Source of the DNA: Bdellovibrionota bacterium FG-1 | GTDB lineage: Bacteria > Bdellovibrionota > UBA1018 | Direction of reading: 5' to 3' | DNA length: 40,080 nt | Assembly: GCA_051382295.1 (NCBI GenBank) | Contig: JBBCAW010000130.1 | Location: 1 to 40,080, forward strand | Shown: positions 3,334 through 35,133 of the stretch, one piece after another | Layout of the letters: every line of letters begins with the position of its first letter | Numbering within the stretch: the stretch's first letter is position 1 | The notes under the pieces: model-generated | The model's database searches: none | What the model saw: only the letters and a program-made list of their open reading frames with translations | What the model was told of the DNA's origin: nothing | Program-made: the position numbers and the translations under genes

Positions 3334-3347
3334 ACCAAAACTCTCGA

Positions 3348-3375: not shown

Positions 3376-3509
3376 CTACCGATAAAGATTTCTGCGCACT
3401 TAGCTAATGGTTCACAACCAGGGAGGGTCTCTAGAAGCATCGATTATGGCGGCTAAAGCTATAACAAAATGGACATGGTTCTTTCCTAGGCGGCCATTCT
3501 GTTTTGCCT

Positions 3510-4168: not shown

Positions 4169-4450
4169 TAGATACGCCTTTATTTGATCGAGGGGTCCCA
4201 TTCGACCGCAGTGATCGCGTAGGCCTGTTTCTAGGTTGATCATGAATGTTCTTTTTTTCTAATTATCACAAACAAGTTTATTCAAGTAAACATCCTTTTG
4301 TCGGAACAGGAGCCCAAAAGCACCCTTTACGACAAGTGAATTTATATTTAAATAGACGATGATTACAACGTGTTAACTTATGAATATTTCAATTAACTCG
4401 ATTTAACTAAATGTTGACCTTAATGATCAAATAATGATATGGAGACTCTT

Positions 4451-5585
4451 ATGGAATTAGACACTCGCAGTAAAGTTGTTTTCCAAACCCTATTTATGCT
4501 GCTGACCCTTCTCAACCTTCGGCATGCCATGGCTGGCAATTCCACTGATCGCGGGGGCGGCGATGGCGTGGTCTTTGATGACCAAGTGGTGTTGGCCGAC
4601 CCGTATATGAGACGCTCCGCAGACGAAGAAGGTCTCTCGGGCTGTCCCGCCGGAACTGAAGGAAAGCTCCACCCTCAGCTTCAAAACGAACTCAAGCGAA
4701 TTGGCCGCATTTTGTCGACCTACGGCGCCAAAGACAATATCTTCTGGCCGGCACTCGAAAATGCTATGTATCGCCAAAGGCCCAAACGCGAGTTTGAATC
4801 CATCTTTGTTCGGGACTCGGTACTAAATAACGCAGTCTGTGGGATCAAGAGCCCTCATCTTGAACAGCGTCCTCTGTGACATGTTCGATGCCCGAGTAGA
4901 GATTGGTGAGGAGGCCCAGGTGGTTTGGTCCACGGTGACGAACGCGCAAAGTCAGGATGCATTTCCTCAAATGAGGATAAAAATGCAATTGGGCAACCAC
5001 GCTAGGCTTGTCCACTCGAATTTAGCTCTATGCGCAGGGAATTCGCAAGAACTCAAAAACGCAGGAAAACTGATCATAGGGGAAAACGCTATGATTCTCG
5101 ATTCGAGTTTTCCGGCCAATTCGGTCATTCTGGCGCAAGGAGCTGCTATTTCGAATCTTCGAATTCATGAGCTTACCAACATCATCTCTCAAGATAACAA
5201 AACACTCTATGAGCGCTCATCCGAACATGGATGGGGCACCGAAATTTCTATCTGGATGAGAGAAGGCTCTTACCTCAGCGGCGGAAAGAATGAATTCAAT
5301 GTTACGCAAAATAAAAAAATGCACTTTTTTGCGGATCTTTACGAAGGCATTAAAAGCATATTTAACAGTGACATCAACGCCGAAAGTAATGCGTTTGATC
5401 CCCCTCTCCTTGACCTCGCCCCTGGTCTCAAAGTTCAACTCCCCGACTGTCCAAGGAAAATGGTGCAAGATTTCAAGAATGGTCCATGGATAAACACACA
5501 ACCTTTGCTCCAGCTAAAATTCAAAGGATATGAAAAGCTCCGATCCCTCCGGGATGTTGGCTCGCTCTTGAGTTGTGAGAATTGA
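4451..5585 (+). pseudogene. Secreted protein apparently split by a frameshift (ORFs 4439-4879 and 4839-5585); possible beta-helix-like repeats
   Basis: Signal peptide ending HAMA then DRGGGDG. Removing one G from GGG at 4841-4843 joins DSVLNNAVC to GSRALILNSVLC. Could instead be two genes or a sequencing error. Confidence 0.5.
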
Positions 5586-5593
5586 ATTAATTC

Positions 5594-5631
5594 GGGTGGG
5601 CAGGAACTGAAGTCCTGCTTGCCCAAATTTT
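5594..5631. terminator. Hairpin between convergent genes
   Basis: GGGTGGGCAGGA-N7-TCCTGCTTGCCC stem with G-U pairs, followed by AAATTTTT. Confidence 0.45.
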
Positions 5632-5665
5632 TGGTCCTGCAGGCTGCGGTACGCCTTTAAGGGAC

Positions 5666-6241
5666 CTACGACATCACTCCATCATGGCTGATCATGCGCA
5701 GTCGAACCCCTTCGGCCAAAAGCCGTTTCATGGGGATTCCCATCGCTTCAAACAAGTTTTTGACCATATAGAGCGCCACCCGGTGATAATCGCGCCCAAA
5801 GTGCACAATGCGCGTGAAGGCGAGTCCATCCCAAAACGCGCGGCCGGTTGAATTGGGCGCTAGACTGTGCCCCTTGCGCGCGCCGGTCACAATCATCGCC
5901 ACCCCACCCGCAAATCGCCGCAAAAAACGTCGCCAAACCGCCCGCGATGGCACCCGGATCAGCAAGTGCAAATGATTGCCCACGTTGGCAAAGCGATACA
6001 CCCGAATTCCCCATTTTTTGGCGAGTTTTTGAAGGAGCACCTCAATTGCGACGCTGTTTGCCTTTCTGAGCATGGAGTAATCACCATGGGCCATCGACGA
6101 ACGCAAAACGAGGTGGATCGCCTGCTTGGGATCGATCGGGCGGATGGCCTTGCGCTTGCCTTCGGCTAGGTCACCACCGTGCGAGACCCCGCTGGTTTTG
6201 AAATGAAACCCGGGGAGATGCGCTTGCTTGTTTCGCGACAT
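5666..6241 (-). mobile_element. Y1 HUH transposase of the IS200/RAYT (REP-associated tyrosine transposase) type
   Basis: HUH motif ANVGNHLHLLI, FW...FTRIV and a catalytic-Tyr helix (ALYMVKN); no tnpB alongside. Confidence 0.85.
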
Positions 6242-6491
6242 ACAGGAGAGTTATCATCGGGGCAATACATTGGCAAGTGCAATTACTTGATTTTTAGACA
6301 TTTTAAAGGATCAGATCTCATGCGCAACCGCCCAAAACGCACGCCCATGGCGATCCTCGCGCGCTGAGGCAGCGTGCAAGTGGGCCGGTTGAAATTACTT
6401 TCCTCAAGTCCAATACAAAGACATAATATTTCGACAGGCTACCAGCACTTGGAAACTATTTTTGCCAGTTTTGGCTCATATAGCTTCCATT

Positions 6492-6626
6492 ATGGGAAGA
6501 AAAACTATCCCATCGCTCCCGCCCTTGCGACGTAAACTCACGGCCTCCCAAGTTGCCAAGCGAGCCGGCATATCGCGTCCCACCCTTCGAACCATTGAAT
6601 GCGGATTTACTTGTGAGGACTCATGA
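6492..6626 (+). pseudogene. Decayed XRE/HipB-like HTH gene (44 aa)
   Basis: Below the ORF-track cutoff. Manual translation MGRKTIPSLPPLRRKLTASQVAKRAGISRPTLRTIECGFTCEDS has an intact HTH core but lacks the first helix and C-terminus. Upstream imperfect inverted repeat TGGAAACTAT (6450-6459) / ATAGCTTCCA (6480-6489). Confidence 0.65.
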
Positions 6627-6675
6627 AATAAATGAAAGAACGCCCCGAAGATCTGGAAGATCCTGAGGCGTTCTT
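6625..6675 (-). terminator. Intrinsic terminator of the 94-aa gene
   Basis: AAGAACGCC (6636-6644) / GGCGTTCTT (6667-6675) stem with inner GATC pairing, followed on the minus strand by U-rich UCAUUUAUUUC. Confidence 0.75.
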
Positions 6676-6729
6676 GAGGAGGTGGTGGGTACAGCGCTTT
6701 TGCGACTCGGTCAGTGTTTCATGACTGAG

Positions 6730-7014
6730 TTACGCAACTTTTTGAGCACTTCGCTTTTTGGTGTAAGCGAGGTAATGCTCGAACTTTTTCTCGTAATCGG
6801 AAACCGGCTCACCGGATTTTTTGATGAGACCGAATTTAAAATGATCGTAATGTTCATCGCAAAAATTGAAGAGATGGGACTTGGCCTTGCAGCCCCAAGA
6901 ATGACAGCCATCAGGCATCGGCGTATGTGCCTTGCCCTTCACAGGAGCCGAAGCTTTGGGCTCATACTGGGTGGTCGTAGGGGGGGCTTTCTTGGGTGCG
7001 GCTTCTTTCGACAT
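6730..7014 (-). CDS. Small basic protein with a putative C-x4-C-x9-C-x2-H zinc finger
   Basis: CHSWGCKAKSHLFNFCDEH; strong SD GAGGAGG at 7024-7030; has its own promoter and terminator. Confidence 0.8.
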   Translation of the reverse strand: MSKEAAPKKAPPTTTQYEPKASAPVKGKAHTPMPDGCHSWGCKAKSHLFNFCDEHYDHFKFGLIKKSGEPVSDYEKKFEHYLAYTKKRSAQKVA

Positions 7015-7057
7015 TTTCTTTATCCTCCTCAGGATCTTGATTCTCTGTACATGAATC

Positions 7058-7084
7058 TTATCGGAGGGAAGGTTCTAAACTTTA
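7058..7084 (-). promoter_or_regulatory. Sigma-28 (FliA) promoter
   Basis: Minus strand reads TAAAGTTT-N11-TCCGATAA versus the consensus TAAAGTTT-N11-GCCGATAA. Confidence 0.85.
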
Positions 7085-7375
7085 GTAAAATGGTCAGGTT
7101 TAAAATAATATAATTTATTAATTGAAAACAGATAGTTATATGAAATGTAATTGTTAATACTGACATGAGTTTAGATCATAATGGACTTTTTTGGACCGGA
7201 AAAATTACTTCACTAGCAACTTTGAGATATCCCCGAAACGCCAACTACCGGCGCAGAAATATTTTGAAGCTCAGGTTTATTGGTAAAGTAATTCAGATTT
7301 GCAGACGTGAGAGTCGCCCCGGTATCCAGCAGAAAAGTCTACCCCTGATGAAACCCATTGAACTAGAATAACCCT

Positions 7376-8740
7376 ATGGCAAGACCTTGGGTGCTCGATC
7401 CTGATCCGTATTTTCGCGGTAGATTATTGAATTTTTCCACAGGGACGACCAGTTCCGTTCCGCCACCCAAACTGATTTCTTCCGCTAAGGAATTTTTGAC
7501 CGCAAGCTCAGATGCCTGCCTCAACATTCCGGCGCTTTTCATGAACTGGAATCTCGACTCGCCAGGCGCCCTCAACGTGATCAGGGGCTTCAGAACGCTT
7601 CGTCCGGTGACGCCGATTTATCTCTTATATGAAGACAAAAGCCCTTTGCCCCAGCTAGAAATCAATCGCCTTGGCCTCGCGGGAACCATCTCAAAAATCT
7701 TAAATTATCCCCATTGGACACCCAGTTTTCCAAGACTCGCGTTTTCAGAGCCCCAACGACTCGATCCTCGCGATGCTCCTCAAATAGAGGATTACACCGC
7801 TGTTCCGATCACGGATTTTTTTCATGAACGTCCTTTGCTTTTCGATGTCCACCTGAACTTACCCCAGACCGGAAAAATGCTTAAAATTATTGGGGCAGGA
7901 GACACGCTCAACGTGGACCGAGTGGCGGCCTATCTGGCGCGGGGAGTAAGATTTTTTTACATTTCTGAAGCCAGTCATCGTACCGCGCTTTCCTACGTCG
8001 ACTTACTGGCCCACGTGTTACTCACCAAACCCGCCGTCACGATTGAAGCCCGACTCAATCAGACTTTTCTTTCGGCCTCGAAACAACTCGGGGAGTTAGC
8101 AAAGTTGCCGCTCTCGGATGTGCACATCGACGCAGGGATCGATTTTTTAACCCAAGTGTCTAATCTCATTCATACTGGTCTCGAAGCCCAGGCTGAAGTC
8201 GCCCAGGCCTTGGTCAAGAACGCTTTAGTTCAAGAGCACACGCTTTTAGTCACCGCAGCTACTGGCTTACTCACCATCCCGCTAGGGATTCAAGCGCAGA
8301 GTGCCTATCGAACCTTCGGCCTTTCAGCCTATTTTCAAGACATCGGCATGACTCAGCTGGACTCAAAATTCGCCGAAGTCACCGATCCGGAGCCGTTAGG
8401 ACCTGAGGATCGGAAAATTTATGAAACACATCCCGCCTTAGGGGCAAAGTTACTAGAAACCAGCGGCGCGTTTGACGAGTCCGTGATTCAGGCCGTGGCC
8501 CAACACCATGAGCGTCGCGATGGTTCGGGTTTTCCGCGAGGAGCAAGCGCTAGCCAAATTTCAACCCTGGCCTCGACGGTCGGACTTGCGGATCAGCTCA
8601 TTTTTTTACTCCAAAGAAGGTACTACGAACCCCAACTCAACGTGATCGATGTTCTCGAGAAGAAGATTTTCAACGGCTACCCTTTGAACGTTGTGGAGGC
8701 AGTCAGGGCCGTGTTTTTTGAGCACTTGAAGGGGAACTAG
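7376..8740 (+). CDS. HD-GYP-family protein with degenerate metal site and a possible receiver-like N-terminus
   Basis: HPALG, QHHERRDGSGFPRG and VGLAD present; the HD dyad is replaced by FQDIG. Confidence 0.8.
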   Translation: MARPWVLDPDPYFRGRLLNFSTGTTSSVPPPKLISSAKEFLTASSDACLNIPALFMNWNLDSPGALNVIRGFRTLRPVTPIYLLYEDKSPLPQLEINRLGLAGTISKILNYPHWTPSFPRLAFSEPQRLDPRDAPQIEDYTAVPITDFFHERPLLFDVHLNLPQTGKMLKIIGAGDTLNVDRVAAYLARGVRFFYISEASHRTALSYVDLLAHVLLTKPAVTIEARLNQTFLSASKQLGELAKLPLSDVHIDAGIDFLTQVSNLIHTGLEAQAEVAQALVKNALVQEHTLLVTAATGLLTIPLGIQAQSAYRTFGLSAYFQDIGMTQLDSKFAEVTDPEPLGPEDRKIYETHPALGAKLLETSGAFDESVIQAVAQHHERRDGSGFPRGASASQISTLASTVGLADQLIFLLQRRYYEPQLNVIDVLEKKIFNGYPLNVVEAVRAVFFEHLKGN

Positions 8741-10074
8741 GAGTCCTTCACTGTTTTTAGATTTTGCGCGGCGGTTTTTCTGAACTTCTTCGAAATTCGA
8801 GCGTCCTCGCGAACCTGTTGCCAGAATTGAATTGCCATCGGCAGCGCTCTTGCCCACCCACTTAAAAGAGTGTGCTCATAGGTAGAAAGCGAGAAAATTA
8901 TGCCTGAATCTTTGCCCTCGCTATTGGGAACGTAAAACATCGGGAGCATATCGTAAACGGGGGCTAGTACCGCTTGTTTATCCCCTGGATTCCAAAAGAA
9001 AGAAAGATTGCCCGAATGCCGATCCGAGTTTGCAATCAACCTACCGAAGCACTCGACCGTCCCAATAGTCATTAAGTCATCGCTCGAAATTTTTTTCTCT
9101 CGCTCCAAAATTCCCGCCGAAATCGCCCAGTTTTGACCGCCGCCGGTCCATTCATTTTCAAACGCCGAAAGAGTCAGGACCCCCTTTCTCCCCTGCACCC
9201 CCACTCGGTCAAAGCGAATGGTTTCAAGAAAGGTTCTCCCTCCCCCTTCTAAGACCCGCGTTTTTGCGGAAGAAATTCCATGGTCCCGCAATACCTCGCT
9301 TGCAAGTGACTCGCAGATCAATAAATCGCGCCACCGCCCCGCCGAAAACGAATCTCCAGCCGGCGAAAATTTTACGAGTACCTTTTCGAAGACCCCCTTA
9401 CAGCGAATCATCGCACCAAATTTAGGCTGCTCGCCGCCTGCCGAAGAGCCCGCAAGCTGGCCTTCCATCGCTGCCTGAGCCAAAGTGATATATTGTTTCT
9501 CGGGATGGTCGGCGTCGATGGATTGAACGGACTGGTTGCGCCCAGCCTGATGACGGTCAAAGGACTCCGCCCCTAATAGGAGATTCCCGGTCAGATCTTC
9601 GCCTCGTCGTGCGATGGCCTCAAGAATATCGTCATGACCCCAATCCAATATTCGCCCCGGTAACTTCAAATCGGGGTGCTTATGACCAAAGGCCCTCCCC
9701 AGAAAGCCCTGAGGTCGCATATCATCCAAAAAAAACGGAAGCCCCGGGTAAAACTGAGGTCGAGACGGGCTTGATTGCGACAGAAAAACAAAAGAATGGG
9801 GATGCAAAGCCAGCAGATTCCCTAGGAGCACGGTTTCGCCTGCGGCGGAAATTTGAAACACCGGAAGCTGAGAACCCAAGTTCCTCACTCTGCGAAGGGC
9901 GGCCAATTTGCGATTACGAGGGCCGCCTAGAGCGACCAGGATTTCGGGCTGTGCCTGAACACTTCGAAACAGCGTCGATTGACTCATCCCCAAGCGAGCC
10001 ATAAGACTTGCGGGAGACTGGGTGCCCTCCGCGCGCAAAATCGAGAGCAGTCTGGGATCGAGTTTTTTGACCAT
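8737..10074 (-). CDS. yjjJ: YjjJ (HipH)-like HipA-family kinase toxin with N-terminal winged HTH
   Basis: LDDMRPQGFLGR, GSSAGGEQPKF, RWRDLLICE, RFDRVG, LIANSDRHSGN, LAPVYDMLPM. Start reassigned to MVKKL at 10074. Confidence 0.9.
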   Translation of the reverse strand: MVKKLDPRLLSILRAEGTQSPASLMARLGMSQSTLFRSVQAQPEILVALGGPRNRKLAALRRVRNLGSQLPVFQISAAGETVLLGNLLALHPHSFVFLSQSSPSRPQFYPGLPFFLDDMRPQGFLGRAFGHKHPDLKLPGRILDWGHDDILEAIARRGEDLTGNLLLGAESFDRHQAGRNQSVQSIDADHPEKQYITLAQAAMEGQLAGSSAGGEQPKFGAMIRCKGVFEKVLVKFSPAGDSFSAGRWRDLLICESLASEVLRDHGISSAKTRVLEGGGRTFLETIRFDRVGVQGRKGVLTLSAFENEWTGGGQNWAISAGILEREKKISSDDLMTIGTVECFGRLIANSDRHSGNLSFFWNPGDKQAVLAPVYDMLPMFYVPNSEGKDSGIIFSLSTYEHTLLSGWARALPMAIQFWQQVREDARISKKFRKTAAQNLKTVKDS

Positions 10075-10079
10075 TCGTC

Positions 10080-10111
10080 TGAATGATAGCATGAATGATG
10101 AAGTGAATGAT
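10080..10111 (-). promoter_or_regulatory. Three 8-bp direct repeats at 12-bp period over an extended -10 promoter
   Basis: TGAATGAT at 10080, 10092 and 10104; minus-strand TGC-TATCAT (10091-10083) lies 8 nt before the yjjJ ATG. Confidence 0.7.
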
Positions 10112-10230
10112 AAAACTAAGAAAAAAACATTTAATTTCAAATAGTTACGTAATAAAAAAAGAAATAGAGACTTCAAAAACAGCTGAAATCCAATGTAGGT
10201 CCAAAGTGAAATTAAAAAATAGACCCGTTT

Positions 10231-10273
10231 AAAAAAAATCGCCAGCCCGAGAATATCCCCGCGACCGGCGATT
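10231..10273 (-). terminator. Intrinsic terminator of the 505-aa gene
   Basis: AATCGCC (10237-10243) / GGCGATT (10267-10273) stem with an A8 tract at 10231-10238. Confidence 0.65.
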
Positions 10274-10305
10274 CATTATTTCAAGCCAAAAACAAGTCAA
10301 GTTGC

Positions 10306-11823
10306 TTAATGTAAAGTCGTTTGGATCTTCAGATTCCGAAAATGAAGACTCCCCGCAACGCCCTTTTCTGAAATACCGATGAGGTCCAAATCTCCCTGAA
10401 AAGGAACACCGAGCGGGCTTTCAAAAAATCGCCCTTGGTACGTGTGCCAATTGCTGGACTCCCGTCCATCATAGGTGCGAATTTCGGTTGCCCACCAATG
10501 CTTCTCGTCAGCCGCAAAATAGATAAACAAGCGCATTTCGCGTCCATTTTCCATCCACTCCGCTTCGAAAGTCCAATAATCCGGGTTTCCCGGATCGGAG
10601 TGAAAATCCCCAAAAGAGGGACTGCCATAGTAAGTCACGCCTTCGGCACCTATGTGAAAATCATCGGCCGTTAAAAGAACCCGATTCGATCTCCACTCGA
10701 TACTATTGTCTAAAACTGGAAGGAGGTCAGGGTCCTTTGGCAAATAACTACCCCACAACGGAGGGAGCGTGTTCACGCCATCCAACAATCGCTTCACCGT
10801 TTCAATGACTTCATCCAGTTCAACCTTCAAGGTGGCCTCGCTATCGATGCGTCGAATGACCACATCGGCCAAATCATCAATCGGAGTCTGTGAATTCATG
10901 CGCTTGACCAAAACCGGCAGCGACACCTGCAAATCGGTTCCAAACGCCCGATCGAGCTCGCCCTGACAAACGGTCATTCGATAAGACTCTGGATTACGAG
11001 CACATCCAGCGGCTTGCAGCATTCGAAGTTTCCAAAAGATTTCCCACCACAATGCTGTTTGCGAAATATCCAAACCACTCAAACCTTCAGAAACAAAAAC
11101 ACCCTTACTCAAAATCTCATCCGCTGGGCCAAATTGTCGTGAAAGATGCTCATCCAAAGCCTTTGGATCTACCCAGAGATCATTCAGCATCGTTTTGACG
11201 AAACGGCTCCAACCCAAAACCCTTTCAAAGGGCGTGGGCATCTGAATCCGCAAATCGCCAGGCAAATTCTTAGGAATTTTTCGATAAGCCTCAATAATCG
11301 ATTTTTGAATTTCCAGGGCCTGCGCCTCGTTTGCGCCTAAAAGATGCGAAAACTCATGTCCCACCAAGGCGATGGTTTGATTCCAATAGTTGTCGGAATT
11401 CAATTTTTGAGCAAGATTTTTGACGCTGATGCAGATCGAATTGGGCTGACTTCCCGGCGCGGCACCGTCCTTCTCTTCATGAGCGGGATCCAAACAAGGC
11501 CCTTCTTCATTGAGTTCGATGCTTGTGGTCTGGATCATTTCAAAAACAGTGTGGGCGCCCTCAAAAAGTAACTTTCCAACCGGACTCGGTGAGGCCCTGT
11601 AAAGCTTGGCCTGAGAATTAAAATAGAGGTACAAACTGAGTCGAGACTGACGAATTGAATTTTTTATCCATGCCGAACTCACGCCCTCAGGAGGTGTAAT
11701 CCCCCCTCCTCCGCTGGTGCCGCTCCCATCTCCGGCGAGCACGACAGACCCACTCCCCAATCCAAACATCAACAACCCAAGTAGGGTTAAAGTTGTTAGA
11801 CTCCCATTTTTTAATTTTCGCAT
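10306..11823 (-). CDS. Secreted protein with HExxH motif and an aromatic-rich C-terminal beta domain
   Basis: Signal peptide ending VLA, then GDGSGTSGGGG; VGHEFSHLLG; SD AAGGAG upstream. Confidence 0.75.
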   Translation of the reverse strand: MRKLKNGSLTTLTLLGLLMFGLGSGSVVLAGDGSGTSGGGGITPPEGVSSAWIKNSIRQSRLSLYLYFNSQAKLYRASPSPVGKLLFEGAHTVFEMIQTTSIELNEEGPCLDPAHEEKDGAAPGSQPNSICISVKNLAQKLNSDNYWNQTIALVGHEFSHLLGANEAQALEIQKSIIEAYRKIPKNLPGDLRIQMPTPFERVLGWSRFVKTMLNDLWVDPKALDEHLSRQFGPADEILSKGVFVSEGLSGLDISQTALWWEIFWKLRMLQAAGCARNPESYRMTVCQGELDRAFGTDLQVSLPVLVKRMNSQTPIDDLADVVIRRIDSEATLKVELDEVIETVKRLLDGVNTLPPLWGSYLPKDPDLLPVLDNSIEWRSNRVLLTADDFHIGAEGVTYYGSPSFGDFHSDPGNPDYWTFEAEWMENGREMRLFIYFAADEKHWWATEIRTYDGRESSNWHTYQGRFFESPLGVPFQGDLDLIGISEKGVAGSLHFRNLKIQTTLH

Positions 11824-11913
11824 AGCATCTCTCCTTTATCCAAAACGATCCATTTACTCAATTGTTCCTGCTGAAAAACATAATGAGAGAATAGCTTCGT
11901 TTGAGCAGGCATG

Positions 11914-11941
11914 GGTTACAAAAGTTCTGTATTTTGTAACC
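11914..11941. promoter_or_regulatory. Perfect 10-bp inverted repeat in the divergent intergenic region (candidate TIGR02147 operator)
   Basis: GGTTACAAAA-N8-TTTTGTAACC. Confidence 0.7.
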
Positions 11942-11965
11942 AAAAGTAGAGTAAAAGGTAAACCT

Positions 11966-12784
11966 ATGCAGAGAACCCTGTTTGATTTCAAGGATTATCG
12001 ATCTTACCTTAAATACGTTCTTCCCACCGGGGGGCACCTCCGGGGGAGCCGAATTCGCTTAGCCGAGGCGCTGGGGGTCCAAAAAGGGTTCATTTCGGCG
12101 GTTTTGCATGACAAGGGCGAGTTCAGTCTTGAGCAGGCTTTTCGAATCAGTCGCTTTCTTGCCCACTCCGAGGAGGAGCGTGAGTTTTTCCTCCTCCTCG
12201 TTCAAATGGCGCGCGCCGGTTCGAAGGACCTGGAAGGACATTTCTTAAATAAAATAAATGCAATGCTCGTTGGCCGGCGCGAAATCCGGGAACGAATTAG
12301 CACTCAAGCGACCCTCTCTGAGGCAGACCAATTGGTGTACTATTCAAGCTGGCATTACACCGCGATCCATATGTGCCTCATGATTTCGGGACTGCGGACA
12401 CCGGACGGGATTGCCAGGTATCTGGGGCTTCCGACCCGAGCTGTTTCAAAAATTCTCGCATTTTTCGTCAAAACCGGGCTGGCCGAGCAGCGCGGGACCG
12501 CTTACATCGCCGGACCGACGAGGATTCACATCGCCTCGGATTCTCATTTTGTGTCCAAACACCACACCAATTGGCGGATGCAGGCGATTCAATCGATGGA
12601 TCGGACCCAAAGTGAGGATCTGCATTATTCGTTAGTGATGAGCATATCGAAAGGCGCGGCTGAGAAGATTCGGGAAATTCTTCTCAACTCCATTCAGACG
12701 ACAGAGCCCGTAATACGCGAGGCCAAAGATGAGGGTGTTTATGCCATGACCATCGATTTGTTCTCTCTCAACGCAAGGGAGTGA
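11966..12784 (+). CDS. TIGR02147/DUF4423-family HTH regulator
   Basis: LFDFKDYRSYLK, N-terminal HTH, YYSSWHYTAIH, HHTNWR, VYAMTIDLF. Start reassigned to MQRTLF at 11966. Confidence 0.85.
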   Translation: MQRTLFDFKDYRSYLKYVLPTGGHLRGSRIRLAEALGVQKGFISAVLHDKGEFSLEQAFRISRFLAHSEEEREFFLLLVQMARAGSKDLEGHFLNKINAMLVGRREIRERISTQATLSEADQLVYYSSWHYTAIHMCLMISGLRTPDGIARYLGLPTRAVSKILAFFVKTGLAEQRGTAYIAGPTRIHIASDSHFVSKHHTNWRMQAIQSMDRTQSEDLHYSLVMSISKGAAEKIREILLNSIQTTEPVIREAKDEGVYAMTIDLFSLNARE

Positions 12785-26150: not shown

Positions 26151-27191
26151 ATGAGTGACTCTTTTAAACACGCCTCCCTTTTAACCTTTGCGCTCTCACT
26201 TCTGGCCCAACCAACATGGGCCGCCACTGATTTCCCCTGGGCTGCGATTTCGGATCACTTAGTCGCCGAAGCTAACGCGGGACATTCGATTGAGACCCTT
26301 TTTTTTCAGGCAGCTCCCGAACTTAAATCTGCGCTTCATGAAGATTCCAAGCGTGAGAGTTTTAAAAAAATGTGGGGCAAAAGTATCAATTATGACGAAC
26401 TCGCCAAGGACATCATTGTCCACCCCGCCATCCTTGCGATGTTGGCCGATCAAATGAAAATCCCGCTCAAACTTTTTCCGCCCATGACCCGGATTCGCGC
26501 CGATAAGCCTGATCAGGAAGCAACAGCAGAACTTCGTCGCTCAGCGGAAGCAATGCCGACGGATGAAAAAGGGCACACCATTGTGCACGCAGGCATGGAA
26601 CATACCTACGGCTACTTATTCAGTACTCTAAAGACGCCGTTTGGCTACAAACGGGCTCGCTGGAATGAAGGCGAAATGACTCGTGGTTTTGACCTGCCCG
26701 CTGGCACCCTTGGACCCTCACCCAAGGAAGGAACGCTTTTTGCCAACGTGACCTATTTTGGGGGCTCGATCGCCTTTAGGGATGAGCCAGGCACTTTGAC
26801 CCTTCTCAAGAAGGGAGCGGCCGGGATTCCAAAGTCGCTTCTGAGTTTTAACTACTCAGCCCTTCGTCCTACTCGCTTGGTTGAAAAAGTGTTCGCTGAG
26901 GATGAGCTTGGGAACAAACGCCTCGTGACCTTGCGAACGGATTTGGTTCCTTTTCTATCGGCCCAAAAAAATACCCATCTTTTGATTTATTCGATTCATG
27001 ACCCTTTACGCGGCGCCCCTGTTTTAATCACGCTCTTTCCGGTCACGCAGGCTTTTGTGAACACCGTTTTAAAACCGAGCGCCCTGGGCAAAGACCAGGC
27101 AATCCAAACTCGATACAACGGTTTTGTGGCGGGGGGCTCTGGCAAAATATTGAAGGGCTCCCGGCTCATCCAAACCTCTCCGTCACCCTAG
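26151..27191 (+). CDS. Secreted hypothetical protein
   Basis: Signal peptide ending TWA; motif-like block HAGMEHTYGYLFS...GYKRARW. Confidence 0.7.
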   Translation: MSDSFKHASLLTFALSLLAQPTWAATDFPWAAISDHLVAEANAGHSIETLFFQAAPELKSALHEDSKRESFKKMWGKSINYDELAKDIIVHPAILAMLADQMKIPLKLFPPMTRIRADKPDQEATAELRRSAEAMPTDEKGHTIVHAGMEHTYGYLFSTLKTPFGYKRARWNEGEMTRGFDLPAGTLGPSPKEGTLFANVTYFGGSIAFRDEPGTLTLLKKGAAGIPKSLLSFNYSALRPTRLVEKVFAEDELGNKRLVTLRTDLVPFLSAQKNTHLLIYSIHDPLRGAPVLITLFPVTQAFVNTVLKPSALGKDQAIQTRYNGFVAGGSGKILKGSRLIQTSPSP

Positions 27192-27229: not shown

Positions 27230-28279
27230 ATGCCTGCACTCACTACGCATCCGGTCATTGAAGTCGCCAATATATGCAGATCCTTTCGCTCCGTAAAAAA
27301 GGAAGAGGGGCTTCGGGGAGCGCTTGCCCTGCTGATCAAACCGACCTACAGCTCACATGATGCCCTCAAAGGGGTAAGCTTTTCTGTCGATCCGGGTTCA
27401 TTTGTTGGGTTGATTGGGGCCAACGGAGCCGGCAAGACCACCTTGCTTAAGATTCTCTCTGGCCTGATCCCCCCCACCTCAGGGCAAGCGAAAGTGCTGG
27501 GGATTGAACCTTTTTCACGACCCCTGAACTTTAGGCGTCAAATTGCGTTAGTGATGGGGCAGAAAGCTCAGCTTTGGTGGGACCTTCCCGCGGTGGACGC
27601 GTTCGATCTGCTGCGGGCGATTTATGAAATCCCCCTGAAAACCTATCAAGAACGACTCAATGAACTGGCGACTTTGCTGGACGTCAAACGCCACCTCAAC
27701 ACCCAAATCCGACGCCTCAGTTTGGGCGAACGAATGAAAATGGAATTGATCGGGGCCCTTCTTCATTGGCCAAGTGTCATTTTTTTGGACGAACCCACCA
27801 TTGGACTGGATGTCCTGGCCGCGCATAAATTAAGGGAGTTTTTAAGGGCATTCAACCATAAGGAGAAGGCGACCATTATTCTGACCAGCCATAACATGGA
27901 TGACATTGAACGCCTTTGCTCGCGCGTTCTCATTATCCGAGCCGGCGAACTCATTTATGACGGAAAACCCCAGGGCCTGACCCGACAAGGGGAGCGACGT
28001 TTGAAACTGCGATTTTTAGAAAACCTCACGATTCAAGACCTCGCTACCACCACCGGCCTTTCGTGTGATGTGATTCGCCTGGGAGACGAAGAGGCCGCCA
28101 CCTTTCACTTCACGGTTCATCAAAAACAAATCGTTCCCATTCTTCAATCCCTCATGGATCGCTATGAGATTATTGATATGGGTGTTGAGGAACAAAGCCT
28201 TGAGCGCGTGATTCAAAAGCTTTACGAAGAAGATCGGGCAACAGTCTCTTCTCCTCCTAGTCCTGGTACCTCCTCTTGA
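27230..28279 (+). CDS. ABC-2 exporter ATP-binding subunit
   Basis: GANGAGKTT, LSLGERMK, LDEPTIGLD, LTSH. Confidence 0.95.
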   Translation: MPALTTHPVIEVANICRSFRSVKKEEGLRGALALLIKPTYSSHDALKGVSFSVDPGSFVGLIGANGAGKTTLLKILSGLIPPTSGQAKVLGIEPFSRPLNFRRQIALVMGQKAQLWWDLPAVDAFDLLRAIYEIPLKTYQERLNELATLLDVKRHLNTQIRRLSLGERMKMELIGALLHWPSVIFLDEPTIGLDVLAAHKLREFLRAFNHKEKATIILTSHNMDDIERLCSRVLIIRAGELIYDGKPQGLTRQGERRLKLRFLENLTIQDLATTTGLSCDVIRLGDEEAATFHFTVHQKQIVPILQSLMDRYEIIDMGVEEQSLERVIQKLYEEDRATVSSPPSPGTSS

Positions 28280-29067
28280 GACTAGGATGGCGCATGGCCG
28301 CGCTTAAAAATGGCCTCCAAGACGCGACGGCCTATCGAGTTGAGTTTCTCTTTGAAATTTTGGGCTCGGCCTTTGTACCAGCAGCCATTCAATGGGTCCT
28401 TTGGTATGCACTCTTCAAACTGGGTGGAGCCAATCAAGTAGCGGGAATGAACTATCTTGACATGGTGCATTACACCCTCACTAGCCTTTTATTCTCCCAA
28501 ATCCGAGGCGGAGACCTCGACTTTGAGTTAGCTGAAATGGTTCGCTCAGGCCAGCTCAGTAATTATCTTTTGAGACCTGTCAGCTTGATGGAGTTTGTTT
28601 ACCTGCGCGGACTCGGCCCCAAACTTTTGATCGCTGGCCTAGCCCTTCTTATTGGGGTCAGTGTAGGGATGAGCATAGGCCTTTCACCCGGACGACTAGT
28701 CGCCTCTATGGGCTTGGCACTGATCGGGAACCTGATTCACTTTCAACTGAGCGCGGCGATCGCGGCGGCATCTTTTATTTGGGAAGAAGCCTATAGCATC
28801 CTCATGGTTAAAAACATGATCGTTGGCTTACTCTCTGGCGAGTTACTTCCTCTCAATATGTTTCCGCATTCGATGCAATGGATCTGGAAAGCAACCCCCT
28901 TTTACCTCTATGTCTTTGGCCCGACTCAATATGCATTGGGCCATTGGAGTCACTGGGAGTTCATTCAGCAACTTGGCATTGCCGGCCTTTGGCTCCTTGT
29001 GGGCTGGGGCCTGATCCGCGTGACTTGGGGTCATGGAATCAAGCATTACCTCAGCCTAGGAGGCTAA
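28276..29067 (+). CDS. ABC-2 type permease (DUF990/ABC2_membrane_6)
   Basis: YR.EF, GQLSNYLLRP, LSGELLPL.MFP. Confidence 0.9.
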   Translation: MRLGWRMAALKNGLQDATAYRVEFLFEILGSAFVPAAIQWVLWYALFKLGGANQVAGMNYLDMVHYTLTSLLFSQIRGGDLDFELAEMVRSGQLSNYLLRPVSLMEFVYLRGLGPKLLIAGLALLIGVSVGMSIGLSPGRLVASMGLALIGNLIHFQLSAAIAAASFIWEEAYSILMVKNMIVGLLSGELLPLNMFPHSMQWIWKATPFYLYVFGPTQYALGHWSHWEFIQQLGIAGLWLLVGWGLIRVTWGHGIKHYLSLGG

Positions 29068-29068
29068 A

Positions 29069-29860
29069 ATGAATCTCGCCCAATACGCTGAACTTTACCG
29101 AGTCCAGCTCAAGAACAACTGGGTGCGTGAAGCGGTCTACCGCACCAATTTTTTAACCTCGGTTTTTACGGATTTGATTTGGATGGGCGTCGAGATGAGC
29201 CTTTTTACGGTCATCTATTCTAATGTGCCGGTCATCGCGGGCTGGACCCGGCCACAGGTCTACTTTTTCTTGGGGATCTTTTTTGCGTCAGACGCGCTTT
29301 TTACGACCCTATTTCAACGCAATTTCTGGAATTTTTCTGACCTCGTCAACAAGGGCGAACTCGACATTCTTCTCACCAAACCCGTTCACCCGCTTTTTCT
29401 AGCGCTCACTCGCTACATCAACCTCACGGCGAGCTTCAACTTACTCCTGGGCTTAGGGGTGGCGATTCGTTTTTCAAAGGAAGCCGGCTTTGCGGGCGGT
29501 TGGCACTGGTTGCTCGCCGTATTTTGGCTTGCGGTGGGACTAGCTACTGCCATTGTGGTGCGGTTTGCCTTTTCCATTTGGATTTTTTGGACGGAGCGCA
29601 GCTGGGCCTTGTCGCGTCTCTATTATCAATTTTTCGCTTTTGCAACTAAGCCCGACACGCTTTACCCTCCGATGATCCGATATCTCATCCTCACGGCGCT
29701 GCCTTTTGCCTTTATTGGGAGCGTCCCGGCGCGGGCGCTCCTTCATGGACTTCAAAACTGGGAATACTTTCTGATTGCGGGAGTTCTCACAACCTTTAGC
29801 TTCATGGATTTATACCTCTGGAAGAAGGGCCTGCAGCGTTATCAAAGCGCGAGCTCCTAA
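29069..29860 (+). CDS. ABC-2 type permease (DUF990/ABC2_membrane_6)
   Basis: YRTNF, GELDILLTKP, LPFAFIGSVPA, GLQRYQSASS. Confidence 0.9.
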   Translation: MNLAQYAELYRVQLKNNWVREAVYRTNFLTSVFTDLIWMGVEMSLFTVIYSNVPVIAGWTRPQVYFFLGIFFASDALFTTLFQRNFWNFSDLVNKGELDILLTKPVHPLFLALTRYINLTASFNLLLGLGVAIRFSKEAGFAGGWHWLLAVFWLAVGLATAIVVRFAFSIWIFWTERSWALSRLYYQFFAFATKPDTLYPPMIRYLILTALPFAFIGSVPARALLHGLQNWEYFLIAGVLTTFSFMDLYLWKKGLQRYQSASS

Positions 29861-29868
29861 AAATCATC

Positions 29869-30013
29869 GGTCGCCACGGCGACCAAAAGCTAAAGGCCGC
29901 TTTCGGTAATCGGGACTCAGCCTCTGCGATGGTCGCCACGGCGACCGATTCAGCAACGTCAAACAAATGTCACCCTTGCGTGAACTTTGCCTCAATCGGT
30001 CGCCACGGCGACC
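29869..30013. repeat. Three identical 16-bp palindromes GGTCGCCACGGCGACC, candidate parS cluster
   Basis: Copies at 29869-29884, 29931-29946 and 29998-30013; the third extends to a 24-bp palindrome (29994-30017). Confidence 0.85.
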
Positions 30014-30134
30014 GATTCTTATTTAAGAATCATTTATTGCTTGCACCCAGAACTGACTGCCCTAGAATCTCTACAACACACGTTTTTACCAACCCGGTCA
30101 GAAGACCAAAACAAACCCAAGGAGGGCGTTGAAA

Positions 30135-31208
30135 ATGGCTTCATTCAGAGAGATGTGTTTTACCCCGGCTGAGTTCGCAACAATCGCAAAAATTGATCGG
30201 AACATGATCCCCGAACTCGAAAGCAATGGACTCCTCAAAACCATTAAAAAACGCATGGGCAACGTCGAGCGAAAAATGATCTCCCTCGAGGACATGCAGG
30301 ACTACTTTCGTAACGGTCGCAGTGGCGACCAAAACCAGGTCTCGACTGCAAACCTCCCTAGTGGCGCGACCGCAGCAGGCCCCGCCGAGGCCGCGACACC
30401 AGCCGCGGTCGCCGCGGCGACCCATCGCTTTATTCAACCCCCTAAGCACAAGAAACAAATGTTCTACAACGTCAAGGGCGGCACCGGTAAATCCACACTG
30501 ACCGCGCAATATGTTATGCGCGCGGCCATGAATGGACTTCGAGTGCTGGCTGTGGATTTGGACGGACAGGGCCACCTCACCGTCAATCTCGATATCCTCA
30601 ACAGCCACGAGTACGCTACGATCTATGACGTCCTCATCAATGATCTACCGATTCAAGACGCCATCATGACCGTAGCCCCTGGTCTCGATTTGATCCCGGC
30701 CAACCTCGGCCTGTGCAATATCGAAATCCCACTCAACCTCAAAGCACGGCGCGAATACCGACTCTCCGAAGCGATCAAGAAAATCGCTGATCAATACGAC
30801 CTGATCGTGGCCGATACCAACCCTGCTGCCTCTATTCTCAACGGCTCCATGCTCGTTGCGGCTGATCTAGTGAATGTGATCTGCGCCACCAATCCTTTAT
30901 CGTTCCACGGCATGTCCCTGGTGATGGCGACCATTGAAACAATGGAACAGGAATTTTCGCGGCAACTCGATGTCAAGATCATCCCTAATATGTACGATGC
31001 CCGCGAAGTCATCAGCCAGGAGGTCTTGGGCGAACTTCGCGCAAGCTTTCCGGACCACTGTACGCACGCGGTCGTGAACCGCTGCGCCGATTTGAATGAA
31101 GCAACAAAACGCCGAACAACGGTCTGGGATGTCAACGCACGAGGCGTTGGTGCACAAGACATCAATACCCTCACTGAAGAACTTCTATGGGAATCCACAC
31201 GTAATTAA
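30135..31208 (+). CDS. parA: ParA ATPase with N-terminal HTH (type Ia-like architecture)
   Basis: Deviant Walker A NVKGGTGKST, AVDLDGQG, DLIPAN, ADTNP; N-terminal FTPAEFATIAKIDRNMI HTH; GGAGG 8-9 nt before the ATG at 30135. Confidence 0.92.
   Translation: MASFREMCFTPAEFATIAKIDRNMIPELESNGLLKTIKKRMGNVERKMISLEDMQDYFRNGRSGDQNQVSTANLPSGATAAGPAEAATPAAVAAATHRFIQPPKHKKQMFYNVKGGTGKSTLTAQYVMRAAMNGLRVLAVDLDGQGHLTVNLDILNSHEYATIYDVLINDLPIQDAIMTVAPGLDLIPANLGLCNIEIPLNLKARREYRLSEAIKKIADQYDLIVADTNPAASILNGSMLVAADLVNVICATNPLSFHGMSLVMATIETMEQEFSRQLDVKIIPNMYDAREVISQEVLGELRASFPDHCTHAVVNRCADLNEATKRRTTVWDVNARGVGAQDINTLTEELLWESTRN
30315..30422. repeat. Two further parS-like palindromes inside parA
   Basis: GGTCGCAGTGGCGACC (30315-30330, one arm mismatch) and GGTCGCCGCGGCGACC (30407-30422, perfect). 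Confidence 0.8.
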
Positions 31209-31252
31209 ACTTAGTTCAAACTATTAATAAATAATAACAAAAGGACTTGAAC

Positions 31253-32203
31253 ATGGATGTCACCAAAGACAAAGAAAAAGACCGGGAAAAAGACGAAGGA
31301 AAAATCAAAACACGGCAAGGCAGCGGGTATCTGAAACAACTTTATTCAACCGCCCGCACCACTGCCGGAAGCACGCACTCGAATCTCAAGAGCCTCACCA
31401 CCTTTATGGTGAATTTTGTCCCCACGGATAAAGTCGACGCCTCCGACCTTCAAGTACGTGTCCATTTTGACGATAGTGAAATCGAAGCCATGGCTCACTC
31501 CATTCGAGAGCATGGGGTATTACAACCGATTTTGGTTGTGCAGGACGGCGATCGCTACAAAGTAATCGCCGGTGAACGACGTCTTCGGGGCGCCAAACGC
31601 GCGGGGTTGGATCGAATTCCCGCACGCGTGCTGTCCACGAACGACAAAGCCACCCATGAAATAGCCCTTCGCGAAAATCTGGATCGCGTCGACCTTCACC
31701 CCCTTGAAGAAGGCGAAGGTTATGTCAGCCTTCTTGAAGCTCAGGCCTACACCAGTCACGATGCGATTGCTAAAGGGTTCGGAAAACCCAAGTCCCGTAT
31801 TACCGAGTGTATCGGTTTTACGCGTCTTCCCGAAAACACCAAGGCTGAGTTACTGAAACGAAACATCAAGAACCGAGCATTGCTTCGACAACTCCTGATA
31901 TTACCCCCCGACCAACATCTGGATTTGATCGCGGAGGCCGCACAAAAAGAAGAGGTCCTACTGGTTCCAGGCGCAATGGAGGGAGCAACCCCTCTTGCAG
32001 AAAGCACAACTCACCCGCCTGTTGCCGTTAAACCCCCTCGAGAACTCAAGCCCTTTGAATTCAAACTGGACCAAAAAGGGTTAACCATGCCGGGTTACAA
32101 ATGGAAAGCGGGCGAAGGGAAAGCAAAACTCCAGACCTTCGCTTCGAATCTTCGAAAGCTCCTTGCTGAAATCGATACCAGACTAACCCAGACCAAAGGC
32201 TAA
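31253..32203 (+). CDS. parB: ParB/Spo0J-family CTP-binding partition protein
   Basis: SIREHGVLQPILV, IAGERRLRG arginine patch, ENLDRVDLHPLEE, HTH HDAIAKGFGKPKSRITE. Confidence 0.93.
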   Translation: MDVTKDKEKDREKDEGKIKTRQGSGYLKQLYSTARTTAGSTHSNLKSLTTFMVNFVPTDKVDASDLQVRVHFDDSEIEAMAHSIREHGVLQPILVVQDGDRYKVIAGERRLRGAKRAGLDRIPARVLSTNDKATHEIALRENLDRVDLHPLEEGEGYVSLLEAQAYTSHDAIAKGFGKPKSRITECIGFTRLPENTKAELLKRNIKNRALLRQLLILPPDQHLDLIAEAAQKEEVLLVPGAMEGATPLAESTTHPPVAVKPPRELKPFEFKLDQKGLTMPGYKWKAGEGKAKLQTFASNLRKLLAEIDTRLTQTKG

Positions 32204-33337: not shown

Positions 33338-33399
33338 CTTTGATCAAACACCCCGGCACGAAAGCTGCTTAGCTTTTGCTCCGCGAAAGGGGCGGTGCT

Positions 33400-33768
33400 A
33401 TGAGAACCAACGATACAATTTGGGATGCCCATTGGGATCTATTTTCCGAGGCCTGCGGACGAAAGCCGGGATACGTCACTGAATTAACAAACTATTCTTG
33501 TTCACTAGACACCAACGAAACCATTGAATTTCGACGCTGGATTCGGATGCTCATCCGGGACCCTCAGTCCAATCTCATGATTGCAGCGATTGGGTGCGTT
33601 GTGCGGTGCATAAATACCCCACCACCCCCAACAAAAACGGGGAACATAACCGCCTATCGTTATCGCGTTGAGTTCACCTTTCCGTTCAATCTTGCACGAC
33701 TGAACGGATCAGTACTGCAAAATGCGGAAGAGGAAACAGTGAGGCATGCACCTCAAGCGAGCGCCTAA
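33400..33768 (+). CDS. PilZ-like small beta-barrel protein (degenerate)
   Basis: GYVTELT, AIGCVVRC and YRYRVEF follow the PilZ strand pattern; RxxxR and D/NxSxxG are not intact. Confidence 0.5.
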   Translation: MRTNDTIWDAHWDLFSEACGRKPGYVTELTNYSCSLDTNETIEFRRWIRMLIRDPQSNLMIAAIGCVVRCINTPPPPTKTGNITAYRYRVEFTFPFNLARLNGSVLQNAEEETVRHAPQASA

Positions 33769-33777: not shown

Positions 33778-35133
33778 TTACTTAATCTTGGCCTGATCCA
33801 AGACAAACTTAAGGGTTCGTTCTTGTCGAACTCGAAACAAGAAATCCTCCCGACGAGCGGCGTTGTCCAAATAAAAGCTACGGACTTTTGCCTCTTCGAC
33901 GTTCATCGAGACCGCAAGCCCCTTAATCTCCGCCTCATACTCCTCAGGCTTCAATTCGATTTTTTCCTGCGAAGCGATCCCTTCCAGCAAAAGACTGGCC
34001 CGTACTTGTTGTTCAGACCGTTTGCGAAGATTTTCGATCTCCGACATCACGGCACTTTGGATCATCTTATCATCCAAGCCTTGCTTCTTAAGATCCTGAG
34101 CCCATTCTTGCGCTAAGGCGCGGGTCTGACTTTCCACTAAGGCAAGGGGCACTTCAAAAGCATTTTTTTCAATGATCTGAGTGATCAATTCACTCCGAAG
34201 CTTACGATCGACCTCTTCAGTGCGTTCTTTCAACAGATGTCCTTTGGCCTTCTGGCGCAAATCAGCCACGCCTTCGTAACCGGCATCTTTTGCAAAATCG
34301 TCATTGAGTTCGGGAATTTTCTTTTCCTTCACTTCGTTCACGTCAACGGTAAACTCCGCTTCCTTGCCCGCCATACTTTTTTCAAAATAATCGTCTGGAA
34401 ACTGGATGCGAAAAGTTTTCTTTTCCCCTGAAGTCATTCCAATCAGATGATCTTCAAAGCCATGAATCAGGCTGTCAGATCCGATTTCAACAACCCGTGA
34501 ACCCTTCATGCCTTCACGACGCTCAACTCCGGACTCAGTCACAATACCGCCATCAAAAGCGATATCTGCATGATCGCCCTTACGCGCAGCACGAGAAAGC
34601 ATCTTGCCCGAGGCATCTGCTAAACCGCTGGTCGCCGGAATCAACTCTGAGTGAGACTGAAGGAGATGGTTGACGACATCATCCACGTCTTTATCAGTGA
34701 TTTCGACTTTTTCTTTTTTGAGAGAAATTCCGGTGTAACCTTTAACCACGAGATCAGGCATGACTTCAACCGTGGCAGTAAAGGTCAGGTCTTGATTTTC
34801 AGCAATGGCATGATCGTGCTCGCCTCCCCCGGTCTTGTGTTCAGGGGTTTCAATCTTAGGGCTGCCAATCGCCTTGAGATTTTCTTTACGAATCGCTTGC
34901 TGGTAGGATTCATCGATCAAGTTATGAAAAAGACGATGGCGCACATCTTCCCCGTAATACTGCTTGATCACGGAAATCGGCGCATGTCCGGGGCGAAAGC
35001 CTTTCAGTTTGGCGGTCTTCTGCACTTCATTTAAACCGTGAAGGTAGCGATTCGCCACTTCCTGAGCAGGAACACGGATCGTCAGTTTACGCAAAATAGG
35101 GGTCGGCTTCTCAACTTGTACATTTAATTCCAT
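33778..35133 (-). CDS. tig: Trigger factor
   Basis: LKGFRPGHAP ribosome-binding signature, FKBP domain (IHGFEDHLIG), ELNDDFAK. Confidence 0.96.
   Translation of the reverse strand: MELNVQVEKPTPILRKLTIRVPAQEVANRYLHGLNEVQKTAKLKGFRPGHAPISVIKQYYGEDVRHRLFHNLIDESYQQAIRKENLKAIGSPKIETPEHKTGGGEHDHAIAENQDLTFTATVEVMPDLVVKGYTGISLKKEKVEITDKDVDDVVNHLLQSHSELIPATSGLADASGKMLSRAARKGDHADIAFDGGIVTESGVERREGMKGSRVVEIGSDSLIHGFEDHLIGMTSGEKKTFRIQFPDDYFEKSMAGKEAEFTVDVNEVKEKKIPELNDDFAKDAGYEGVADLRQKAKGHLLKERTEEVDRKLRSELITQIIEKNAFEVPLALVESQTRALAQEWAQDLKKQGLDDKMIQSAVMSEIENLRKRSEQQVRASLLLEGIASQEKIELKPEEYEAEIKGLAVSMNVEEAKVRSFYLDNAARREDFLFRVRQERTLKFVLDQAKIK

Follow-up and report, generated by a model that had tools for sequence, protein, structure and literature searches.

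The window, a 40,080-nt stretch of contig JBBCAW010000130.1 from Bdellovibrionota bacterium FG-1, carries a parA-parB operon (parAB2) together with five copies of a 16-bp palindrome (parS2). We consider this module (parABS2) to be, probably, a complete and domesticated type Ia-like ParABS of a plasmid family, which serves as an auxiliary second centromere and positions a locus on the origin-side arm independently of the canonical system. The chromosomes of the order appear to carry two independent centromeres. Judged from the sequences, binding of the parS2 palindrome by ParB2 is highly probable, and parABS2 is likely to be a working motor. A role in chromosome positioning or segregation is put forward with more reserve, as the somewhat better supported option. 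An earlier note on this DNA had proposed a second, domesticated chromosomal partition module, and the proposal was upheld, with an intact canonical parABS beside it.

parS2 sites and the ParA2 and ParB2 proteins

The window was scanned for the palindrome with up to two mismatches. Five copies were found, exactly where the earlier note had placed them and nowhere else in the window (Table 1). Shuffled windows held 0.14 palindromes on average and 2 at most, and none of 100 shuffles reached five. Four of the five sites are exact, and the copy at 30315 has one mismatch (GGTCGCAGTGGCGACC). Sites 1–3 lie between the stop codon of the upstream ABC-2 gene (29860) and the parA2 ATG, all upstream of the predicted promoter, with the end of site 3 located 27 bp before the predicted −35 element. 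Sites 4 and 5 lie within the parA2 coding sequence, in its variable linker region, a point absent from the earlier note. The genome-wide scan that the note had called for was carried out on the whole assembly (4.44 Mb, 158 contigs). Four exact matches were found, all at the parAB2 locus, and five one-mismatch matches were scattered singly elsewhere. Because every exact copy sits at the module and the rest are scattered singles, a repetitive extragenic palindromic (REP)-like repeat was ruled out. Such clustering of cognate palindromic parS sites at the operon is a hallmark of type I ParABS systems with a helix-turn-helix (HTH) ParB.

Forty orthologous loci, picked from 53 ParB2-positive genomes, were fetched and compared with the window (41 loci in all). 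Counted from 1 kb ahead of parA through parB, 126 kb held 148 sites with at most one mismatch, versus 6 in 308 kb of flanking DNA. The consensus of the 148 sites was Y-GGTCGCC-RY-GGCGACC-R. The centre dinucleotide was GC in 68, AC in 52, GT in 16, AT in 9 and another in 3, so that the CCACGG core described earlier is only one spelling. Placement was counted in the 39 loci with an intact parA start: an upstream site was present in 37 and a linker site in 37, with both in 35. The length of the parA2 linker varies about five-fold, and of the sites within parA, 35 are translated in one frame and 20 in another. VA[ATVM]AT peptides were encoded by exact site codons in 26 of 28 cases versus 1.4% expected from codon usage, a figure inflated by common descent. 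In contrast, a neighbouring conserved linker peptide has free third positions. As far as codon choice can tell, the parS2 sites within parA are under DNA-level selection.

A sigma70-type promoter upstream of parA2 was predicted from a phylogenetic footprint only; a scan with the sigma70 consensus detected no promoter. The pattern TTG(C/T)-N18-21-TAnAnT was found in 28 of the 39 loci (0.4 expected from shuffling), and in none of those 28 did a parS2 site overlap the core promoter. The upstream regions of the 39 loci were also inspected by eye for a ParA operator, and no conserved operator was seen.

Both proteins keep the residues of their families. In ParA2, the deviant Walker A motif K114-G-G-T-G-K119-S and the aspartates D141, D143 and D227, which include the catalytic one, are invariant in 34 orthologues. 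In ParB2, G107-E-R-R-x-R112 and E141-N142 are invariant in 40 orthologues, as expected for a CTPase domain with an HTH, and K180-S-R-x-T-E-C, R208 and R212 of the HTH are invariant in 40 sequences. Pfam matched AAA_31 on parA2, and ParB_N and HTH_ParB on parB2. The structure model of ParA2 showed two helices, a hairpin and a helix within residues 1–60 at a predicted local distance difference test (pLDDT) score of 84–95. This is the N-terminal winged HTH that marks type Ia ParA proteins, in agreement with the earlier note. By sequence, this domain of the window ParA2 gave only a faint match; a relative (P0140) matched HTH_17 at 1e-5 and MerR at 1e-4, both below the Pfam cut-offs. The best fold match over the whole length of ParA2 was V. 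cholerae ParA2 (template modelling score 0.68–0.69 by query). The nearest solved structures for ParB2 were Noc and Spo0J/ParB (E 1e-28), and KorB was also among the structural matches. For a complex between the ParA2 dimer and the N-terminal peptide of ParB2, structure prediction gave a score of 0.31 versus a mark of 0.32.

Distribution in the order and plasmid relatives

Genomes compared are given G numbers (G000 is the source genome of the window), contigs C numbers and loci L numbers. A search for canonical parS and parAB, also proposed in the earlier note, revealed a canonical parA-parB pair on G000 contig C31, some 13 kb from dnaA; it has an LGKGL peptide, and two canonical parS lie immediately upstream of it. 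Because the canonical parABS is intact near dnaA, parAB2 is an additional system. Its replacing the canonical centromere was ruled out by the intact canonical parAB-parS of this genome and by canonical ParB and parS in most genomes of the order.

Among 116 genomes of the order, which are kin so that counts are not independent, ParB2 was found in 98, always as a single copy, exact parS2 in 99, canonical ParB in 107, canonical parS in 95 and dnaA in 100. ParB2 and exact parS2 occurred together in 96 genomes and were both missing from 15; three genomes had the site only and two had ParB2 only. The three site-only genomes are 72–77% complete, and one ParB2-only genome (G025) has two sites with a CC centre. 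In a sample of the phylum, ParA2 (E < 1e-55) was detected in 44 of the 52 genomes that belong to the order and in none of the 198 others. Named relatives are labelled as metagenome-assembled genomes of Bdellovibrionota, Oligoflexia or Bdellovibrionales; the ParB2 of one named record, L116, is 70% identical. The accession prefix of L116, CAIRTR01, is a genus that PMC13200544 assigns to class UBA1018, which makes that lineage likely for the window too. The mean distance across 14 genomes was 0.27 for ParB2 and 0.33 for canonical ParB, indicating similar conservation.

Some loci depart from this pattern. The other ParB2-only genome, G281 (75% complete), encodes a divergent ParB2 of 50% identity, in which the N-terminal peptide has decayed and the recognition helix is intact (L431, C10:2656-3459); no ParA2 and no exact site were found in this genome, and the 5.9-kb contig of its ParB2 has no site. 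A lone exact parS2 lies about 3 kb from canonical parB in G008 (C104:26996), away from the parAB2 operon. Four exact parS2 lie off the parAB2 contig in G027 (C88 and C110), where duplication or contamination may be responsible.

The best plasmid matches to ParA2 came from Ca. Megaera and Ca. Bandiella plasmids (36–38% identity for the best two). ParBs of this plasmid family share 38–39% identity with ParB2 over the CTPase and HTH domains (E 1e-29 to 1e-37). An unbiased palindrome scan of these plasmid regions returned GTGGTCGCCACGGCGACCAC, identical to parS2, right behind parB on the Ca. Megaera plasmid CP113872, in a region of 32% GC, and GGTCGCA-AC-TGCGACC right behind parB on the Ca. Bandiella plasmid NZ_CP104165. 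The half-site is GTTCGCC on the Cardinium plasmid (two sites) and GTTCGCG on the second Megaera plasmid. A sixth plasmid match (L126), which lacks a ParB, had no site. Of 160 metagenome and viral loci screened, three (L248, L249 and L250) held ParA, a family ParB and sites together; L248 has TGTCGCG and L249 TATCGC(C/G), with two sites each. All family sites share the core TCGC-x-RY-x-GCGA. The earlier note had described the DNA specificity of the module as new. The site was indeed not found in the literature searched, but it is not confined to the chromosome: because it is identical on a Ca. Megaera plasmid, it was probably inherited and did not evolve on the chromosome.

Co-variation of the palindrome with the ParB HTH, suggested earlier as a check, was seen across seven lineages. 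The helix position aligned with Caulobacter R173 varied with the outer bases of the site as K-S/GG, K-G/GT, R/TG and Q/TA. For ParB and Noc, a code that likewise pairs R with G and Q with A has been reported, according to the part of that paper available to us (PMC7383237). Site position 6 varies while R208 stays fixed, and that contact is unexplained by the code.

A quick ParB tree placed ParB2, the plasmid family and two other G000 ParBs together (99 in the Shimodaira–Hasegawa-like approximate likelihood ratio test), apart from canonical ParB; the tree carries a long-branch warning that includes the C21 and C32 proteins. In a quick ParA tree, ParA2 fell in an HTH-bearing ParA clade with the plasmid family (95), and SopA, P1 ParA, RepA and Soj lay outside. 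Wherever the context of a relative is known, it is a plain parAB pair on a plasmid, and in two cases a DnaA-like rep gene adjoins. We infer a plasmid origin for the module, given that the chromosomal form has a narrow host range, that the layout is type Ia and that these relatives are plasmid-borne. A phage source was rejected: at least 121 viral stretches had an exact site, all as single matches and mostly in GC-rich DNA, and among the stretches listed, two had a weak ParB-like match nearby. No close relative was found in 50,697 phage records, and no relative of the Megaera ParB was found in viral contigs.

Four parAB pairs are present in the G000 assembly in all. Two of them, closely related to each other, lie at C21:145103-146655 (L531) and C32:3888-5431 (L532). 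Each has one palindrome inside its parB, AAGTTTCCGCGCGGAAACTT (C21:145394) and AAAGTTTCGGATCCGAAACTTT (C32:4175), so that near-identical recognition helices go with different sites; these pairs are probably mobile. Four closely related ParA-like genes of one clade (C52:53897, C60:4096, C140:29938 and C143:4524) lie on contigs with no ParB_N match. In addition, the 713-aa protein P0128 is a tandem fusion of two HTH-ParA units of the plasmid/ParA2 family. On the second Megaera plasmid (CP113871, L125:3765-4765) parA is annotated as two overlapping open reading frames (ORFs), and parB and a 34-bp palindrome look intact.

Chromosomal position and features of the window

The recurrent gene order is ABC, ABC-2, ABC-2, parA2, parB2, (mscS), tig, truA (ABC, ATP-binding cassette). 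Among the 41 loci, the ABC ATPase was a neighbour in 26 and tig in 15. parB2 and dnaA lie on one contig in six genomes, 76, 158, 167, 180, 296 and 309 kb apart, distances that are biased short because both genes had to share a contig. The operon is directed towards dnaA in five of these six. In G005, skew and contig ends imply that parAB2 is at least 375 kb from dnaA. The earlier proposal of a non-origin locus therefore holds in that the module is not at dnaA, but only loosely at these distances. The locus was also placed against GC skew, as the note had advised, in the relatives G044 and G239. In these two genomes the skew flips near dnaA and not at parAB2, and a second replication origin at the module was rejected. 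The locus does not look like part of a plasmid or chromid, with a separate replicon and its own rep gene or origin, since a contig is shared with dnaA in six relatives and no skew switch occurs in two. In G000 itself the window contig (C130) and the contig of the canonical system (C31) are separate, so this evidence on the replicon comes from relatives.

Pfam matched ABC and ABC-2 genes ahead of parA2, and MscS and trigger factor downstream of parB2. No rep, integrase or transfer family was matched in the 39 window ORFs scanned, 14 of which had no Pfam match at all. The flanks are thus an ABC-2 exporter, mscS and tig, as the earlier note had described them. Two window ORFs of no Pfam family (26151-27191 and 33376-33768) are repeated neighbours of the module, the first in 13 and the second in 9 of the 41 loci. 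Within the otherwise hypervariable parA2 linker, the peptide GAxAAG[PS] (window 30363-30386) is conserved at the protein level in 17 loci, with free third codon positions. Further away, after rph, the region 1622-12784 looks variable and encodes an AAA_14/DUF4143 ATPase, a PIN domain, a HipA-like kinase, an HD protein, DUF4423 and several ORFs without a Pfam match.

Table 1. Features of the parABS2 module and its flanks (window coordinates)
Feature	Position	Strand	Description
Upstream flank (outside module)	27230..29860	+	ABC ATPase and two ABC-2 permeases; adjoining in most orthologous loci
parS2 site 1	29868..29885		Core GGTCGCCACGGCGACC at 29869-29884, just past the stop of the upstream ABC-2 gene
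parS2 site 2	29930..29947		Exact core at 29931-29946
parS2 site 3	29994..30017		Core at 29998-30013, extended to a 24-bp inverted repeat
Predicted sigma70-type promoter	30041..30068	+	TTGCAC (30041-30046), TAGAAT (30063-30068); phylogenetic footprint
parA2	30135..31208	+	357 aa; MerR-like winged HTH (about aa 1-62), hypervariable linker, deviant Walker A KGGTGKS
parS2 site 4	30315..30330		One mismatch; in parA2, where the HTH domain ends; translated as GRSGD
parS2 site 5	30407..30422		Exact; in the parA2 linker, other frame, read as VAAAT
parB2	31253..32203	+	316 aa; conserved N-terminal peptide KTRQGSGYLKQLY, ParB_N (GERR, EN motifs), HTH, C-terminal domain
tig, downstream flank (outside module)	33778..35133	-	Directly abuts the ABC-2 gene in two module-less genomes

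Proposed role, alternatives and known systems

In the mechanism that we propose, ParB2 dimers would read Y-GGTCGCC-RY-GGCGACC-R through their HTH, a step for which co-occurrence and co-variation argue strongly. Site binding would then lead to CTP-dependent clamp closure and sliding, and ParB2 would coat several kb around the operon, as the intact motifs and the mechanism of the family suggest. The N-terminal peptide of ParB2 may stimulate nucleoid-bound ParA2-ATP, and sister loci would be moved or spaced along the nucleoid as in plasmid ParABS. Stimulation of ParA by an N-terminal basic peptide of ParB is described in the available part of PMC12462528. With a different site, a different helix and no LGKGL motif, cross-talk with the canonical system would not be expected; orthogonality through distinct sites and peptides is reported for the SCP1 systems, in the part of the paper at hand (PMC13245405). 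The ParA2 HTH and the spreading of ParB2 over the promoter probably restrain expression of the operon itself. The likely benefit would be extra segregation or even spacing of the origin-side arm region; the module is dispensable in some lineages. We suggest only tentatively a division of labour between two centromeres, in which the canonical ParABS handles oriC and the domesticated plasmid ParABS grips a locus 0.08–0.4 Mb down one arm, spacing chromosome copies evenly. Even spacing would be useful if cells grow as multi-chromosome filaments. Such filamentous growth occurs in B. bacteriovorus, and for this order it is assumed as the motive.

Several observations weigh against the main reading. 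ParB2 was absent from 9 of 67 good-quality genomes, and two genomes, G038 and G183, have the ABC-2 gene directly against tig, with module and site both absent between intact flanks; parAB2 is therefore not essential. The distance between module and dnaA varies more than four-fold. In the module-less G037, about 350 kb separate dnaA from the flanking ABC-2 gene, and the position of the module may therefore be an inherited neighbourhood and not a selected one. Distance matrices of ParB2 and canonical ParB were weakly and not significantly correlated (Mantel, rho 0.18, p 0.12, 14 genomes of one family). D319 of ParA2 aligns with one of the DNA-binding arginines of Soj. The co-variation rests on just the seven lineages, and ParB2 was grouped with the plasmid family and not nested in it, so that the quick tree gives no direction of transfer.

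ParB2 could instead be mainly a CTP-clamp regulator or local chromatin organiser, for which KorB and VirB are models; its spreading would repress the operon or its neighbours, with ParA2 as co-regulator through its MerR-like HTH, and nothing would be moved. The sites do bracket the promoter in most loci, the winged HTH of ParA2 is well predicted, and KorB appeared among the structural matches of ParB2. However, no exact sites exist elsewhere in the genome to form a regulon, the core promoter is free of sites in the 28 loci, and the neighbours vary from locus to locus. The ATPase domain of ParA2 is, moreover, highly conserved. Because target sites elsewhere are lacking and ParA2 is strongly conserved, the pure regulator, which the earlier note had offered as its other option, is unlikely. 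Somewhat less probable still is that the cargo of ParA2 is something other than DNA, or that ParA2 acts in the cell cycle, with ParB2-parS2 only as a chromosomal landmark for a ParA2 gradient in division-site or organelle placement; orphan ParA/MinD ATPases and MipZ are models for such a role. The intact canonical system, by which segregation is already served, and the protein-level conservation of GAxAAG[PS] in 17 loci speak for it, as do Bdellovibrio ParA paralogues with non-segregation roles, reported in the portion of PMC7186360 that was available. On the other hand, every relative whose context is known is an ordinary parAB pair of a plasmid, and no third conserved gene accompanies the module.

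Two further explanations build on the plasmid relatives. The chromosomal ParB2 and parS2 might destabilise incoming plasmids of the same family by incompatibility. The identical site on a plasmid fits this idea, and incompatibility of same-type partition systems is known (PMC13245405, available part). Yet the known plasmids belong to intracellular symbionts of other phyla, and the site is frozen across the order while the plasmid sites vary, unlike an arms race; we regard plasmid exclusion as very improbable. Barely less plausible is that the module is a relic of an integrated plasmid, or marks a plasmid or chromid contig, with no present chromosomal function. Although plasmids carry its closest relatives, two of which neighbour a DnaA-like rep gene, and it has been lost in some genomes, it is intact and single-copy in 98 of 116 genomes and about as conserved as canonical ParB. 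dnaA shares its contig in six genomes, the window has no rep gene, its GC content is flank-like and no skew switch was seen. Together with the DNA-level selection on the sites, these results largely refute a decaying relic.

If the tentative division of labour between two centromeres is true, main chromosomes throughout this order would have borne two full ParB-CTPase systems since ancient times, and the family would provide a natural series of orthogonal ParB-parS pairs. With a second system across a whole order, one could test how two centromeres share a chromosome without conflict and how machinery of plasmids turns into core equipment. Seven natural pairs of ParB helix and site are available in the family, extending the ParB/Noc specificity code. 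It also predicts the parS of several symbiont plasmids and could yield new orthogonal ParB-parS labels. Because the hosts are uncultured, tests must be heterologous.

Main chromosomes are usually described with one origin-linked ParABS and a near-universal parS. The parts of parABS2 are of a known kind; we found none of the literature searched, with supplements, figures and logos and most subscription papers outside the search, to hold a paper with the parS2 site or with an order-wide second ParABS on a main chromosome. The accessible part of PMC7022226 has nothing on two systems on one chromosome.

Among known systems, the plasmids of Ca. Megaera polyxenophila (CP113872, CP113871), Ca. Bandiella numerosa (NZ_CP104165) and Ca. 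Cardinium (CP101108) likewise encode a ParA with an N-terminal extension and an N-x-KGG Walker A; their parAB pairs are annotated, and no characterisation of them was found in the literature. They have 1–2 sites, mostly right behind parB, whereas the Bdellovibrionota module is chromosomal, with 2–8 sites upstream of and inside parA. The type Ia systems F SopABC, P1 ParABS and V. cholerae ParAB2 share the parA-parB operon and the N-terminal winged HTH of ParA, but the parAB2 locus, unlike type Ia plasmid ParABS, is not at a replication origin. ParB2 is not close kin to their ParBs either: SopB matched it at E 0.01 and P1 ParB at 0.11, against 1e-29 to 1e-37 for the symbiont-plasmid ParBs. The parallel with F sopC drawn in the earlier note was not borne out, since sopC matches parS2 at 8 of 16 positions and at 6 of 14 in the arms, an arm score equalled by the canonical parS of G000. 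Kinship with sopC and SopB was accordingly rejected, and the module is not of the F SopABC kind.

Soj/Spo0J-parS and Noc-NBS likewise use a 16-bp palindrome, and residue 173 appears to follow the same base code in ParB2. The helix differs, with K180, C186, R or K191 and R208 in place of RTAG (ParB) or QKKR (Noc), and the LGKGL motif is missing; canonical ParB of G000 forms a clade separate from ParB2. parAB2 does not have the canonical combination of parS TGTTYCACGTGRAACA, R173 with G201, LG(R/K)GL and a place next to oriC. Nor does it resemble Noc, with many dispersed sites, QKKR and no partner ParA, as its sites are confined to the operon and a cognate ParA is present.

Dual systems of the same type have been characterised only recently, and on a plasmid, as far as the available part of PMC13245405 tells. 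The Streptomyces plasmid SCP1 carries two orthogonal type I HTH-ParB systems with few sites near each operon, of which one may be dispensable and the second was proposed to be a recent gain; in the Bdellovibrionota case the second system is order-wide and on the main chromosome. Two systems per replicon were predicted for secondary replicons of Azospirillum (10.64898/2026.09.14.751567, seen in part). In Borrelia burgdorferi, the available part of PMC9712426 describes ParZ as a lineage-specific second centromere-binding protein, probably derived from a mobile element, which binds within the operon that encodes it, on the main chromosome. ParZ does not count among the ParBs; it takes over the one ParA present and adjoins parS, whereas the module described here adds a complete second ParA-ParB pair, at distances of 76 to more than 375 kb from dnaA.

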